13,714 bases of DNA from a virus (lineage: Duplodnaviria > Heunggongvirae > Uroviricota > Caudoviricetes): the IMG/VR virus record IMGVR_UViG_2693429599_000004. One strand, given 5' to 3'. Made by a program: the position numbers and the translations under genes. The stretch's first letter is position 1. The number at the start of each line of letters is the position of its first letter. Positions 7,666-13,441 of this stretch are shown here, in pieces. Under the pieces are notes generated by a model. The model saw only the letters and a list, made by a program, of their open reading frames with translations. It was not told the DNA's origin and did no database searches.

Positions 7666-8199
7666 TTATCTGTCGATTCCCCAGCACGCCAGCGCGCTCT
7701 CCTGGTCACGACGGGATACCTGACCATAACAGTTATTTGAGCGGATACGGCAGTCTCTGCCACCGTCCTTAATCCACCAGCGAATCGCCTCACACGCTCC
7801 CCTGCGGTCACCAGCATTCAGCCGCTTATAAAACGTCGACGGGAAACACTTACCGGGGCCAATGTTATAGGGACAGAATGACGCTATACCCGCTTTCTGT
7901 GGTTCGGTCAGTGGAACTTTAATATTGCGCTCCACCCATGCCAGCGCCTTATCCCGTTCAATGGCATTAACCTGGTCGCATTTTTCCTTCGACAGTTTCA
8001 TGCCCGGAATAACAGGTTTACCATCCACCATTGTGGCACCGCGGCAGATGGTCCAGATACCCGCACCATCACGGTATGCCGTTGTGTGGTTACCTTCTTT
8101 TTCATCCAGAAACTGGTCGAGAATATCAGGCGCAGGCGCACCGATGGCAATCAACGCCAGAACGGCAGCCGACAGGCCATATTTGATTTTGGTGTTCAT
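7666..8199 (-). CDS. R: Endolysin R, lysozyme with N-terminal signal-arrest-release (SAR) domain
   Basis: 177 aa; Gly/Ala-rich weakly hydrophobic N-terminus (GLSAAVLALIAIGAPA) then a lysozyme catalytic region (EGNHTTAYRDGAGIWTICRGAT). Matches the Stx-phage/P21-type R from memory. Confidence 0.9.
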   Translation of the reverse strand: MNTKIKYGLSAAVLALIAIGAPAPDILDQFLDEKEGNHTTAYRDGAGIWTICRGATMVDGKPVIPGMKLSKEKCDQVNAIERDKALAWVERNIKVPLTEPQKAGIASFCPYNIGPGKCFPSTFYKRLNAGDRRGACEAIRWWIKDGGRDCRIRSNNCYGQVSRRDQESALACWGIDR

Positions 8200-8651: not shown

Positions 8652-9458
8652 TTATATACGCCCTTTCAGATAAGTCATCCCCGGCTGCATCCAGTCAACA
8701 GGTGCTTTCTTAAAGGGCGTATTATCAAAATCACGCAGAAGAGCCTCCAGCACAACTGCATCATTGTCAGCACCACTGGCCATCATTTCAATCTCAGCTG
8801 CTACCTGCAGATATCCCATGCAACGACCAATGCGCTTCATCAGCCCCTGCTTTTTATTGTTCTTCAGGTAATCAATGGCAAATTCAATGAGCGCCTCACT
8901 ATGCTGGTGCGATGGCGGTGTTAATTTCCCATTTTCTGAGATGGTTATTTTCCCGCCATCTCCGTATACAACAAAGGATGGCCGGTTACACTCCCATTCC
9001 TGATCTTTATCAGGTGCAGACGCAATAAAATAACGTTTATTTCCTTCCTCTCCGGCACTTTTAACCGTAATGGAGTACTCAGACTGCAGACAAGACGCCT
9101 CTTTTTCTGACCGCAGTGTTGACGGCGGCATCTTCAGAGAACCAGTAATTCTTCCCGGTAGCTTTCCTTTGTAGGTTATCAACACATCCTGCGCCTCTAA
9201 AATTATGGGGCGCTTTTCCGGCAACGGTTCGTTCCCTTCACATAACCCGGCAGCAACATCCATGAAAAACTGCTTCGCCTGCTTTTTCGCCTCAGCTTCG
9301 TAAAACTCCAGCGTGGCACCTTCAGTACGGTCAAGACTAATCGCCACATTTGGCAACAACAGTGACGGATACCCACCAATTTCCAGTACCACAGTAACAG
9401 TAATCTTATCCGGGTAATTATTTATCCCTTTAACAACCAGTTCGTATTTTTTCTTCAT
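8652..9458 (-). CDS. Hypothetical protein (268 aa) inserted between pinholin and endolysin
   Basis: ATG at 9458 lies 4 nt after the holin stop, with GGGGAGAG SD inside the holin 3' end. Long uninterrupted ORF. No catalytic motif, signal peptide or TM segment recognised by eye. Confidence 0.65.
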   Translation of the reverse strand: MKKKYELVVKGINNYPDKITVTVVLEIGGYPSLLLPNVAISLDRTEGATLEFYEAEAKKQAKQFFMDVAAGLCEGNEPLPEKRPIILEAQDVLITYKGKLPGRITGSLKMPPSTLRSEKEASCLQSEYSITVKSAGEEGNKRYFIASAPDKDQEWECNRPSFVVYGDGGKITISENGKLTPPSHQHSEALIEFAIDYLKNNKKQGLMKRIGRCMGYLQVAAEIEMMASGADNDAVVLEALLRDFDNTPFKKAPVDWMQPGMTYLKGRI

Positions 9459-9462
9459 CGCT

Positions 9463-9678
9463 TTACTCTCCCCGCGCCGCCTTACGCCGGTCCTCTCTGA
9501 TTTTGAAATACAGGTTAGTCAGATATGTCAGCAGCCCAAACAGCAGACTCCCCAGCACGCCTATTGCCGCCCACTGAGACGGGGAAACCCTGTCCAGCAA
9601 CTGCAGGAACCAGTAGCCCGTTCCCACCGCTGACGTGGTGTATGACACACCTGTTGTGATTTTTTCCATCTGGTACAT
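9463..9678 (-). CDS. S: Pinholin S (phage 21 S21-like class II holin) with dual-start motif
   Basis: [71 protein letters not shown] matches S21 from memory; two ATGs three codons apart; GGGAGA SD. Upstream part of the track ORF (to 9783) rejected. Confidence 0.9.
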
Positions 9679-9827
9679 ACCCCGTCTCCCGTTATCCGGA
9701 AGCTGACAACAATAAAAAAGCCACCAGTTAAGTACTGATGGCTCTGATAACTCATGCAGGCATCTCAGACGACCCACTGACACTACCGGTGAGTTTAACG
9801 ATACCTTCCATTTGACTGGCTCACTTT

Positions 9828-11696
9828 TTATGATGATGCTGGTGCATTTATCTCCAGCACCAGACTTTCTATCTCAACGCCATACGCTGCATTTTTGGTA
9901 ATATCCGTCAGCGTCAGCGCATTCAGCCCCAGTGTCAGACTGTCTTTTATGACCTGGAATGCCGGGCCAGCCACTCCATTCAGTTTCGGAGTAACCGTGG
10001 CACTGCCGGCGGTGAACACCAGCTCCAGCGTCTGCCAGTCGTTACTGTAATTCCCGAACTCGCCCAACTTTGTGTTTCCTGCTTTCCTGTGATGCATCAG
10101 ATTCAGTTTGCCGTCTGTGGTCTGGGTGAAGAACGACATCAGGAACGGGTTACCAGTCCCGGTCATCGCCACGACGTCAGGTAACGCTACATCGGTATAC
10201 AGATAAATTCCCAGACCGAACTGGTTGTTGGTCAGTGCGCCTGACAGTCGAAACTTACAGCTCAGTCTGCCACCCCGTGTCAGCAGGGAGACTGCGTCAT
10301 CCACCGGGCGCGTCAGGGACCAGGCTTTATTGCTCTGCTTGGCGATCTTAAATACACCACCCGACAACTGAATTCCGCCGTCCTTAATGGTCCAGCCCTG
10401 CGCAGCAGCCTCTCCGGCTGTCGGCAGCAGGGAGATTGTGCGAACGGACGTATCTGCAGACGGACCCGATGGCGTGTCGCCGCCGGGCGAGGGTTTGATT
10501 TCCGGTGCCTTACCACTGATGAAGGCTGAGGTGCGCCCGGCTACGTTCAGAATAGCAGTTGCCATACGATCGGGAATAATGCCACGACGCGCCCATGAGC
10601 TGAAATGCGTCGGGCGATTTGATGATACCCAGTTTTTGTTCGTTCGGGATGCCGAACCGTAATAACCAGACCCGGCAATATCAGGATCTTCTGACGGGTT
10701 GTTTGTCGGTGTATTAACTCCGCTACCATCGGTCATAAAGGGAACAAAATAAATCTGCTGGGATTCTTTACCTTTATATGCACCATATACCACTTCATAT
10801 TGCGTACCGTGTTCTTGTTTCCACGCGTATGTCGTGTCGCCACAAATCCAGGGGACTGATGCCGGACTTCCACCGTGACACTGCGCTGCCAGCCCGGCAA
10901 GGTCAGCACGGAACTGCTGTACCATTGCAAGAAATGCTGCTGGCTGCTGGGCGTAACTGGCATTCGTCATATCGAATTCCCCCTGCATCCAGCATATCGC
11001 CAGCAAAACGTTTTTCGGGTTTTTCTGCAATGCTGCCTTCGTGCGGAAAAGCAGATCCTGATATAACGGCTTACCCACTCCCCAGCGAGCCGAATCCTGA
11101 CTGGCCCCCGTGGACTCGCTGAATGTCCCCTCCGTGCCCTGGGTGAATGCCGAACCACCACGACAGCATGGTACCAGCAGGATCCCCGCATTATTAGGGA
11201 TATACGGAAGCAGTTTTTTGGCAATATGTAAGCCCTGGCCGACACAGCCGTACTGCCCTTTGCTCAGGTCAGCCCGGGGATGGTTAATCGTACTCATATC
11301 CTGAACATCATGCAGACAATGGTCAGCAGGAATGATGTCGTTAAATACGCATACTTCACCACCGGGAGTCACTGTGTTACGACGGGCCAGTTGCTTAATG
11401 CGCGGATGGGGCGCATCGTATGAATCCGGAAGCGGAAGCCCTTCACCGTAAGCCATGGCATTGGACTGCCCGGCCAGTACGATGACGTAGTACCACTCCG
11501 GCTCAGTTGCACCACTGACGACCACATCACCTTCTGCTGCAATCGCCTGCATCAGGGTATAAGGGGTTATGGCCACCGGACTACCAAACGGCTGCCAGCC
11601 CTCTTTCAGTTTATGTGTCAGCTTTTCCGCAAGATCTGACGGCGACGCCGCCCTGACAACATCATAGTGTTTAAATGCCATGGTTCTTTCCACCAT
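9828..11696 (-). CDS. nanS: Prophage-encoded sialate O-acetylesterase NanS-p-like (N-terminal DUF1737-like region plus SASA/SGNH esterase domain)
   Basis: 622 aa; GQSN esterase motif ([18 protein letters not shown]). Position between the tRNA/cargo block and the holin, as in Stx phages. Likely true start is the second ATG at 11681 ([16 protein letters not shown]). Confidence 0.85.
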
Positions 11697-11941: not shown

Positions 11942-12277
11942 ATGAAGTGGATTGTGATTGATACAGTTATCCAGCCATCATGCGGAATATCTTTTTCAGT
12001 CATATGGAGTAAAATAAAATTAATAATCTGGTATCAATCGGATGCTTTCTTACCTCCTGAAAGTATATTTACACTGACTCACACAGGCATCATGCTCAAT
12101 AACAAAGTGCTGCCTGTAACCATTTACAACGTAGTACCATTCAATAAAACATTCTGGAATTTAATCAAAAACAGCCAGGAATGCCCTACAAATACAGATA
12201 ACGTATTGAATGAATGCTTTAATAACCGTTGCACTCTGCAAATATGTCCTTATGGGCTAAAACAACAAAGTCCATAA
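11942..12277 (+). CDS. Hypothetical AT-rich, Cys-containing protein (111 aa), divergent from the late operon
   Basis: ATG with AAGGAAA SD; low-GC coding sequence; Cys-rich C-terminal half ([25 protein letters not shown]). No homolog recognised. Confidence 0.45.
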
Positions 12278-12300: not shown

Positions 12301-12333
12301 ATCAATATAAACAGCCCCTCCGGAGAGGGGCTG
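12301..12333 (-). terminator. Rho-independent terminator (minus strand) inside the cargo region
   Basis: Minus strand CAGCCCCTC-TCCG-GAGGGGCTG (9-bp perfect GC-rich stem, 4-nt loop) followed by TTTATATTGATTTTGT. Confidence 0.65.
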
Positions 12334-12724
12334 GAGAGTGGCGCTATGTGCCATTGCATGGTGCCGGGTGCCTCCCGGTGAATTCAGTACCAGCACCTGA
12401 ATCCGCGATTATCCCATATACCTACTCGCTGATTGCCCCTCCGCACAGGGGGATTCACCATGCCAGTTTCTTTTAACAAACTCCCCGCAAACCAGACAAC
12501 AGTCAACCGCCTGAATTGTGAAGTATTTAAAAATTTCTCCCGCTAACTGATACCCGGCTAACAGTCTGGCGTTTTCTTTTTCAGCAACGGGAAAGCAGCA
12601 ACCACCACACCCGCCACCAGCACACCGTCAGCCAGCACTGACATTATCCGGCTGCTGCAATGCCATTCACAAAAACAGTAAGCAATCACTTTTTACCGTA
12701 ACCGGTGATAATCCAGATATGTAT

Positions 12725-13081
12725 CTACCCCAGATGAGTAATCCGAAGTTCATCCATACCACAGGTCCTGGCTATTCTGTTGTACTCCTGAACAAGAGCA
12801 AATAATTCTGAATTAGCCACCATGAACTCATCGCAAACCCTCTGTATAGCATCACTATTCAGAATAATAACGTCTCTTCCCGAAAGACGATCAGGAGTAC
12901 AGAACAAAACTGTCAAACGGCTGAAGGCCTTTGCTCGTTCTGCATTGACTATATCAATACGCTGCCTAAGGATGAAACACCCCGACGCCTCATCAATATT
13001 CACTCTACCCACACCATATGAATGATAAATATTTAATGCTGAAAAAACCATTAGACCGTATAACAAACACTCAATCAACAC
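12725..13081 (-). CDS. Hypothetical protein (up to 118 aa) at the position stxA occupies in Stx phages
   Basis: Track ORF starts at GTG 13081; first ATG at 13051 gives 108 aa; weak SD. Co-directional with the tRNAs and late genes. No homolog recognised. Confidence 0.4.
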   Translation of the reverse strand: MLIECLLYGLMVFSALNIYHSYGVGRVNIDEASGCFILRQRIDIVNAERAKAFSRLTVLFCTPDRLSGRDVIILNSDAIQRVCDEFMVANSELFALVQEYNRIARTCGMDELRITHLG

Positions 13082-13188
13082 TTAACAGAACTTTTATTTT
13101 TGACAAACATATAATATTTTCAACAATATCCTGAGCCAGGTATATTTCAGTATAAGGCTCTGCCGAAAGGAATCTGGAAGAATGAATA

Positions 13189-13265
13189 TGGCGCGCTGTA
13201 CTGGATTCGAACCAGTGACCGATTGCTTAGAAGGCAATTGCTCTGTCCGGCTGAGCTAACAACGC
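13189..13265 (-). tRNA. argO: tRNA-Arg (anticodon UCU), phage argO/argU-like
   Basis: 77-nt cloverleaf read by hand: acceptor GCGTTGT/ACAGCGC, D-arm TAGCTCAGCCGGACAGAGC, anticodon loop CTTCTAA, T-arm GGTTCGAATCC, encoded CCA. Resembles E. coli argU. Confidence 0.9.
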
Positions 13266-13365: not shown

Positions 13366-13441
13366 TGGTGGCCCTTGCTGGATTTGAACCAGCGACCTGG
13401 CGATTATGAGTCGCTCGCTCTCACCACTGAGCTAAAGGGCC
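13366..13441 (-). tRNA. ileZ: tRNA-Ile2 (anticodon CAU, lysidine type; ileX/ileZ-like), formally tRNA-Met by anticodon
   Basis: 76-nt cloverleaf: GGCCCTT acceptor, GCTCAGTGGTGAGAGC D-arm, anticodon CAT at 34-36, GGTTCAAATCC T-arm, encoded CCA. Near-identical to E. coli ileX from memory. Confidence 0.88.

Follow-up and report, generated by a model that had tools for sequence, protein, structure and literature searches.

A putative 92-codon accessory gene at the stx2AB position of a defective lambdoid prophage

The IMG/VR virus record IMGVR_UViG_2693429599_000004 (Caudoviricetes) was analysed as a stretch of 13,714 nucleotides (nt), hereafter the window, whose minus strand is the late strand of a prophage. 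An earlier note had pointed to an unrecognised open reading frame (ORF) of 108–118 amino acids (aa) lying directly downstream of two phage tRNA genes, where Shiga toxin (Stx) phages carry their toxin genes. A GTG-initiated ORF of 118 codons is present at 12725–13081 on the minus strand, but comparison with related loci indicates that the gene falls short of this first-called ORF, occupying positions 12725–13003 (minus strand) and encoding a product of 92 aa. In the reading that we consider probable, this gene (ORF92) is a genuine late-operon accessory gene, or moron, and its product a soluble hairpin that probably acts by binding a partner and is neither a secreted toxin nor an enzyme. The description of unknown cargo in a toxin slot was accurate as a framing and appears to have singled out a real gene, but one that had been mis-sized and does not encode a toxin.

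The conserved coding sequence (CDS) consists of 92 codons and a stop codon at 12725–12727, 279 nt in all, read from the GTG at 13003 (GTG13003). Three E. coli clades of the gene were compared, clade A being that of the window (96–98% identity) and clades B and C showing 60–65% aa and 68–72% nt identity to it; all three share the GTG position and the 279 nt to the stop codon, with no indels. Clade A was sampled at 84 loci, 80 from IMG/VR and four others, and GTG13003 followed by an intact 92-codon frame was found in every one. Among these copies the 279-nt core carried eight polymorphic sites (0.029 per nt), five of them synonymous third positions, whilst the 26 codons of the apparent N-terminal extension (13004–13081, minus strand) carried eight sites in 78 nt (0.103 per nt) with no wobble bias, a value equal to that of the upstream intergenic DNA (0.103 per nt). 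Guanine plus cytosine (GC) content was 44% in the CDS and 32% in the extension. A Shine-Dalgarno (SD)-like GGTG lies 8 nt upstream of the GTG start (13012–13015, minus strand); clade B has a GGTG-type SD as in the window, and the homologous position in clade C reads AGGAG. Calculated anti-SD pairing was −5.3 kcal/mol for GTG13003 and −6.9 kcal/mol for clade C, compared with −2.9 kcal/mol for ATG13051 and −0.4 kcal/mol for GTG13081, so that the weak translation signals reported previously hold for the long forms but not for GTG13003. The 92-aa GTG form is also the one called by the Prokaryotic Genome Annotation Pipeline (PGAP) itself in clade C.

A product of 108–118 aa starting at 13051 or 13081 would be a different kind of protein, since the extension if translated is hydrophobic (peptide MVFSALNIYHSYGVGR) and its N-terminus VLIECLLYGLMVFSALNIY, with a mean Kyte-Doolittle value of 1.82 over 19 residues, could act as a signal peptide or membrane anchor for exported or membrane cargo. 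Consistent with such a form, no stop interrupts the 26 upstream codons in clade A, ATG13051 is retained in 84 of 84 clade-A copies, gene callers and PHROGs use the 108-aa version, and an in-frame extension also occurs in some clade-B assemblies (P0014 and P0015). In the upstream alignment compared, however, all 26 open codons were seen in clade A only; the frame upstream of the GTG meets a stop after five codons in the clade-B locus L005 and has ten open codons without a start codon in clade C, neither offering an in-frame start. GTG13081 is replaced by GTA in 53 of 83 close copies, and the alignment of the extension between clades A and B differs by 7 nt, a frameshift. Taken with the intergenic level of polymorphism, the poor anti-SD pairing and the low GC content, these observations make a long form very improbable, and positions 13004–13081 are most likely an untranslated leader rather than coding sequence. 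This leader is alignable over 13004–13078 between clade A and positions 5001–5068 of L005, the 7-nt length difference aside, and is not alignable with clade C beyond about 30 nt. Such a conserved 5′ leader might serve in regulation.

Substitution patterns within the 92-codon frame point to a genuine protein gene under purifying selection. The ratio of non-synonymous to synonymous substitution rates (dN/dS) between clades was 0.18–0.31 in the sense frame, and differences at third positions were about twice those at first or second positions. No interruption of the sense frame occurred in any of 12 lineages, the most divergent having 23% aa identity, an openness far beyond chance. Four of the other five frames gave dN/dS values of about 1, and the wobble-aligned antisense frame gave 0.23–0.37; because the ratio was low there too, this frame was tested separately. 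It contained 2–8 stops in nine of the 12 lineages and was interrupted in clades A and B, every antisense frame was interrupted in most of the 12 lineages, and the mean BLOSUM62 score of replacements was about 0 in the sense frame and −0.55 to −1.06 in antisense. An antisense ORF at 12822–13025 (plus strand) was rejected as a real gene on account of stops in most lineages. Origin as a fragment of stx, of the TerB/TciA gene or of a late structural gene was likewise rejected, there being no similarity and the clade C homology stopping cleanly at the gene borders. The earlier note had named a fragment of a known late-region gene, or a lack of conservation, as outcomes that would tell against the ORF, and what was found instead was no such similarity and a constrained frame in three clades.

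Conservation of the region might also stem from an antisense gene or from RNA, either a small RNA (sRNA) or an element for processing of the late transcript. The slot around the ORF abounds in sRNAs of the STnc100/PasD family, an antisense ORF does exist (67 aa in the window, 92–95 aa in clade C) and the wobble-aligned antisense frame has a low dN/dS, as given above. Covariance models from Rfam showed no overlap with 12725–13081, the only matches in the region being at 12303–12492 and at two tRNA genes, whilst equal-length relatives were recovered from a profile search of 1.84 billion proteins and AlphaFold2 folded the protein confidently from five sequences only. The PasD/STnc100 prophage sRNA family has been described in enteropathogenic E. 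coli (EPEC), and in strain E2348/69 the esterase gene has PasD2 on one side and PasA on the other (Zhu, Shabalina and Storz, bioRxiv 10.64898/2026.05.13.724894); overlap of the ORF with a Pas sRNA was accordingly rejected, these sRNAs mapping elsewhere. With the sense frame open throughout and its replacements the more conservative, a non-coding or antisense origin is extremely improbable, and we regard the coding status of ORF92 as established by these comparisons.

The gene is widespread and largely absent from annotation. Of 5,426 complete E. coli genomes, 1,312 contained a 489-nt region that includes it, with at least 95% identity in 1,185 (clade A) and 60–80% identity in 126 (clades B and C). 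No annotated feature lay under the match in any of 36 clade-A rows sampled across the ranking, nor in AR_0069 or EPEC E2348/69, making 38 clade-A genomes inspected. The E2348/69 copy lies at about 1,287,600–1,288,000 of NC_011601.1. For AR_0069, in which a 1.8-kb stretch including the ORF is 100% identical to the window, as it is in other strains, PGAP features cover all the late-strand neighbours listed below and the ORF alone is missing. Among four listed rows of the divergent clades, both from clade C carried a ‘hypothetical protein’ and both from clade B were unannotated. The clade C annotations are 92-aa hypothetical proteins (WP_001017777.1 and WP_047088380.1) whose GTG is preceded by AGGAG. 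RefSeq/PGAP thus omits the clade-A gene systematically, in about one-fifth of complete E. coli genomes. Being unannotated, the gene escapes any transcriptomic, proteomic or pan-genome study built on RefSeq features; adding a 92-aa CDS with a GTG start, as in the sister-clade annotation, would be a simple remedy. WP_001017777.1-type proteins resemble the window's product in their 60–65% aa identity, equal length, GTG start and stop, and in their slot between the late-operon DNA methyltransferase gene (or Q) and the lysis genes. The window's clade differs from them in its weaker SD, in an open extension that misleads gene callers, in having no terminator of its own and in its want of a PGAP annotation.

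Profile searches placed the protein in a catalogued family. Residues 11–118 of the ORF matched phrog_2873, a PHROG of unknown function built on the 108-aa gene call, over all of its positions 1–108 of 108 (E = 1.7e-70, 235 bits). The term unrecognised consequently applies only in part: the gene was unannotated in the sampled clade-A genomes and no informative match was obtained for the ORF in Pfam or NCBIfam, but it belongs to phrog_2873 and has WP_001017777.1 in a sister clade. PADLOC-DB 2.0, searched at E <= 1, returned nothing for the 92-aa protein, its Citrobacter and P0036 relatives, TciA, TciB or IraM. Relatives were few: only about 20–30 clusters, nearly all from E. coli/Shigella, came both from searching 5.8 billion proteins and from a full HMMER scan against 1.84 billion representatives, the latter recovering relatives of equal length. 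The family is a small one that comprises phrog_2873, the WP_001017777-type proteins and distant members such as ST64B Sb55, and it occurs solely in temperate phages and prophages of Enterobacteriaceae.

The 92-aa product has a mass of 10.5 kDa, an isoelectric point of 5.3 and a maximum Kyte-Doolittle value of 0.94 over a 19-residue window, consistent with the absence of any transmembrane or signal-like segment by this measure; no hydrophobic N-terminus suggestive of a signal peptide was present in the 92-aa form, as judged by Kyte-Doolittle and not by a dedicated signal-peptide predictor. AlphaFold2 modelling on a five-sequence alignment gave a predicted local distance difference test (pLDDT) score of 81.6 and a predicted template modelling (pTM) score of 0.67. 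The model is a two-helix hairpin, with helices at residues 3–35 and 50–81 joined by a loop (36–49) carrying a TPDRxSG motif that is invariant among the aligned sequences, and conserved positions map to the hairpin tip and both helices. Structure searches with this model returned only generic coiled-coil hairpins and no significant match, and the best hit in a PDB profile search by sequence was non-specific (E 0.03). The sole match in a Pfam scan of the ORF was to RHIM at an insignificant E of 0.095. No similarity of the 92-aa protein to the StxA ribosome-inactivating protein domain or to StxB was found by Pfam scan, PDB sequence search or predicted fold. The toxin or virulence character implied by the earlier reading of this slot is not borne out, given a generic predicted hairpin with neither signal peptide nor transmembrane segment nor Stx similarity.

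The position of the ORF, in contrast, was correctly read. Both phage tRNA genes lie on the same strand as the ORF and just upstream of it: tRNA-Ile2, of the ileZ type with a CAT anticodon (13366–13441, minus strand; ARAGORN, Rfam; named tRNA-Ile by PGAP), and tRNA-Arg (TCT) (13189–13265, minus strand; ARAGORN, Rfam), the latter bounding the cargo slot on its upstream side. The 3′ end of a DNA methyltransferase gene comes first in late-strand order, before tRNA-Ile2, and nanS-p, P21-type holin and lysozyme genes follow on the same strand, as in the late architecture of Stx phages; no Stx-like protein is encoded, as judged from the ORFs and from Pfam. Stx2a phages align to the window at the tRNA region and then again from about position 12521, where the STnc100-like element starts. 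Phage Stx2a_WGPS8 carries Q, ileZ, argN, argO, stx2A, stx2B and then the shared STnc100-like element in that order, its argN and argO being homologous to the tRNA-Arg gene of the window. The claim that the ORF sits in the stx slot is thus correct, because Stx2a phages share both flanks and carry stx2A and stx2B between them, and we take the position of ORF92 as late-operon cargo to be equally secure. The segment occupying the stx2AB position between these homologous flanks consists of the ORF together with a gene for a DUF3927 or TciB-like small membrane protein of 43 aa (12558–12689, minus strand; Pfam DUF3927 1.3e-26, phrog_1470 TciB-like 1.5e-11), which begins 35 nt downstream of the 92-aa gene. 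On its downstream side, the segment in whose place Stx phages have stx2AB is bounded by a PasD-related prophage sRNA of the STnc100 family at 12303–12492 (minus strand), which matched Rfam RF02076 with 132 bits, the gathering score being 47. To say that the ORF alone stands in place of stx would be right as to position but incomplete, the slot also holding the TciB-like gene, the STnc100 sRNA and an antisense iraM gene.

When 50,697 phage records, over 170 of them from Stx phages, were searched by tblastn, the ORF was found in mEp460_ev081 only, and none of the Stx phages of this collection carried it. Stx2AB and the 92-aa protein occupy the same interchangeable segment and are both co-directional with the Q-dependent late transcript, but there is no sequence, domain or fold relationship between them. 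Stx, an RNA N-glycosidase of the AB5 type, carries signal peptides and is exported, in contrast to the single 10.5-kDa helical hairpin of predicted cytoplasmic location considered here.

Morons in the definition of Hendrix and colleagues, of which lambda bor and lom are classical examples, provide the closest comparison. Presence or absence between conserved flanks was observed, the flanks enclosing stx2AB in Stx2a phages, ORF92 in the window and different cargo in other cases, and base composition was unlike that of neighbouring phage genes, at 44% GC for the CDS and 31–32% for the leader and intergenic DNA compared with 53–54% for nanS-p, lysozyme and methyltransferase genes. An intrinsic terminator follows directly after the stop codon in clade C (L004, 5334–5351 plus a T-run) and in Citrobacter (L007, 6328–6347). 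ORF92 therefore resembles the classical morons as a single small gene between conserved late genes with patchy presence, atypical GC content and, in clade C and Citrobacter, a terminator. It is unlike them in that its own promoter is only a candidate, in that the window has no terminator before the next gene, and in that no lysogenic-conversion phenotype is known for it. The candidate is a sigma-70 promoter-like match found by consensus scan (TTGAAA-16-AAAAAT, 9 of 12 consensus positions; 13096–13123, minus strand) about 90 nt upstream of the GTG, and clade C has a 10 of 12 match at a comparable distance (about 90–110 nt upstream). ORF92 is an accessory ‘moron’ cassette of late operons in temperate enterobacterial phages, often with its own terminator.

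Relatives of ORF92 occupy similar positions elsewhere. The downstream-of-Q position is shared by E. coli clades A, B and C, mEp460_ev081 and the contig of P0030, a relative of 42% identity located downstream of a Q-like gene and tRNA-Thr. A Citrobacter braakii relative (P0029; 95 aa, approximately 40% identity) is bracketed by intrinsic terminators and followed in order by genes for TciA (TerB family), TciB (DUF3927), two holins and an M15 endolysin, this copy lying directly upstream of the holin–endolysin cassette. Searching for related loci with a narrower family alignment yielded four loci. More distantly, ST64B Sb55, P0036 and P0038 (97–106 aa; E 2e-5 to 9e-5) share the N-terminal N-[IF]-[DE]..RC..L and C-terminal EYN..A patterns, but identity is 23–24% and the TPDR loop motif is not conserved. 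Sb55 of Salmonella phage ST64B lies after Rz, between the lysis cassette with a regulator gene and the HNH/terminase genes, and the other distant relatives (23–24%) are small genes inside or at the edges of tail modules.

The Citrobacter order raises the question of whether the ORF92 product is the cytoplasmic first component of a three-gene module with TciA and the membrane peptide TciB. Such a module might serve phage exclusion or the physiology of the envelope or of stress, and the window would then hold a degraded version from which tciA has been lost. The order ORF92–TciA–TciB–holin recurs in E. coli clade C (L006 and L008) and in Citrobacter braakii despite only about 40% aa identity of the ORF92 product, and the TciB-like gene lies 35 nt after ORF92 in the window, where its usual TerB (TciA) partner is absent; together these place tciB directly downstream in four of the six lineages with readable downstream context. 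Set against this, in clade C and Citrobacter the intrinsic terminator separates ORF92 from tciA, and TciA was found in 104 phage records compared with one of 50,697 for ORF92. P1, CharmingMan and about 100 other phages carry tciA with or without tciB and have no ORF92 homologue, and conversely relatives in clade B, the P0030 contig and ST64B occur without tciAB. The TciA of clade C and Citrobacter is 87% identical to P1 TciA, and co-location may only mirror a common insertion hotspot. The link to tciAB is hence frequent and not obligate, and a functional three-gene module, although the first of the four rival explanations in likelihood, ahead of a decaying remnant, a long form and a non-coding or antisense origin in that order, is judged unlikely.

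Phage P1 and the window resemble each other in that the window has a TciB-like neighbour and the P1 tciA-tciB-tciC cassette adjoins a DNA methyltransferase gene and phage tRNAs including tRNA-Ile2, but P1 has no homologue of the 92-aa protein and has plp and upl upstream on the other strand. P1 TciC is a 35-aa peptide encoded downstream of tciB, a position different from that of the 92-aa gene, the two being compared by position and not by sequence. In P1 (L011, NC_005856.1, 68.6–71.0 kb) the DNA methyltransferase gene, three tRNA genes (Asn, Thr, Ile2) and tciABC stand together as in the lambdoid late slot, and the shared association suggests a tRNA/tci cargo block common to unrelated phage types.

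Beyond the slot, several features of the late region were assigned. An IraM-family anti-adaptor gene lies antisense to the late operon (11942–12277, plus strand; NCBIfam NF007393 4.7e-48, PGAP); its GC content is 35% and it is an independent cargo gene inside the operon. The STnc100-family sRNA carries a terminator hairpin at 12312–12333, scored as bidirectional terminator-like in the terminator scan. PGAP's feature at the STnc100 spot is instead a pseudogene, a partial ‘hypothetical protein’ on the other strand, and in E. coli OkiPb01694 (L005) the element occurs in four to five tandem copies at approximately 260–270 nt spacing (3627–3866 and 5563–6483). The next late-strand gene ahead of the holin is that of a nanS-p-type sialate O-acetylesterase (9828–11696, minus strand; Pfam DUF1737-SASA-DUF6645, PGAP ‘SASA family carbohydrate esterase’), followed by the P21-type holin gene (9463–9783, minus strand), an ORF of 268 aa resembling DUF1327/YdfR (8652–9458, minus strand) and the lysozyme gene (7666–8199, minus strand). 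The DUF1327 match is confined to the first approximately 100 residues of the 268-aa ORF and the AR_0069 counterpart has 114 aa; the ORF may be a fusion or a read-through. The locus L001 departs from the window past the holin. Polymorphism of the TciB-like gene across the 84 close copies is non-coding-like (0.098 per nt, no wobble bias) and in E2348/69 it is annotated at 28 aa only; this gene may be decaying. The tRNA-Arg (TCT) gene has seven polymorphic sites in 77 nt among the 84 otherwise approximately 98–99% identical loci and is as variable as intergenic DNA.

Further along the late strand the prophage is clearly defective and internally deleted. At most 64% of the window was covered by any one complete E. 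coli genome. The terminase large subunit (gpA) ORF lacks its N-terminus (3831–5480, minus strand) and is separated by about 700 nt from Lom (2511–3110, minus strand), an interval in which no Pfam-recognised head or tail-shaft gene was found, small ORFs at 3177–3847 being left out of account; a tail-fibre gene follows at 1133–2452 (minus strand). Beyond the tail-fibre genes lies an ORF of 197 aa (92–685, minus strand) whose similarity (1.4e-94) to the SseK/NleB family of type III effector glycosyltransferases spans the first 187 of 317 family positions; it represents a truncated nleB-like effector gene or one disrupted downstream.

A number of observations weigh against ORF92 of the window being a functional accessory gene of the kind proposed. 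Promoter-like matches were no more numerous than in shuffled sequences; the window has no terminator between the 92-aa gene and the next gene, the first terminator-like hairpin being that at 12312–12333, after tciB and STnc100; the SD of the window's clade is weak (GGTG compared with AGGAG in clade C); and the gene resides in a clearly defective prophage. E22A or E22G is present in about 60% of clade-A copies at a residue invariant in the other clades, so that the window's clade could be under relaxed constraint. The function of the remote relatives in tail modules may differ, protein binding is deduced from the fold and such a hairpin could also bind nucleic acid, as Rop does, and searches by peptides, RefSeq accession and PHROG identifier found no mention of the family in the searchable literature. 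Several of these points, namely the change of SD from AGGAG to GGTG, the high frequency of E22A/G, the truncated terminase with missing head and tail genes and the lack of a terminator after the gene in clade A, would also fit a gene that descends from a functional ancestor and has lost its expression in the window's clade, as would the non-coding-like polymorphism of the adjacent tciB-like gene, its truncation in E2348/69 and the failure of PGAP ever to call the clade-A gene in the sampled genomes. Such decay is quite improbable, however, with all 84 copies intact from the GTG, core polymorphism 3.5-fold below that of the flanks and mostly synonymous, the same GGTG-type SD in clade B, and the locus kept at at least 95% identity in approximately 1,185 complete genomes.

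For a functional late-operon gene, expression and mode of action may be inferred as follows. ORF92 lies downstream of the Q antiterminator, DNA methyltransferase and phage tRNA genes and upstream of the lysis genes. In lambdoid and Stx phages the late transcript spans the whole interval between Q and the lysis genes, and because this biology is established, transcription upon induction would probably occur by Q-antiterminated read-through from pR′. The putative weak sigma-70 promoter may add transcription through the approximately 85-nt untranslated leader. The predicted product, an antiparallel hairpin of two helices located in the cytoplasm, has a TPDRxSG tip and conserved helix faces and might dimerise into a four-helix bundle. 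A 92-aa hairpin without a catalytic scaffold would most likely work by binding another protein of host or phage, and might by analogy belong with small modulators such as IraM, which is encoded next to it. The two proteins are alike in being approximately 100 aa long, cytoplasmic, non-enzymatic, horizontally acquired prophage cargo that plausibly binds or modulates a protein; they are unlike in having no sequence similarity, the NCBIfam IraM model matching the neighbouring gene only.

On present evidence the ORF92 product is nothing out of the ordinary, a hypothetical accessory protein of phages from a catalogued family, and the gene marks the exact segment that is swapped for stx2AB, which helps to describe how this hotspot is filled in Stx-negative relatives. 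A more far-reaching possibility, which we hold to be improbable, is that the hairpin is the founder of an unstudied class of late-operon lysogenic-conversion or counter-defence proteins that replace stx in non-Stx lambdoid prophages and bind a host regulator or defence protein, for instance as IraM does. If that were true, host physiology would be altered on induction or in the lysogen by a gene invisible to every annotation-based omics study. Should a host target exist, ORF92 would be another small prophage modulator beside iraM and the PasD/STnc100 sRNA, in a slot where regulators and virulence factors are already known.

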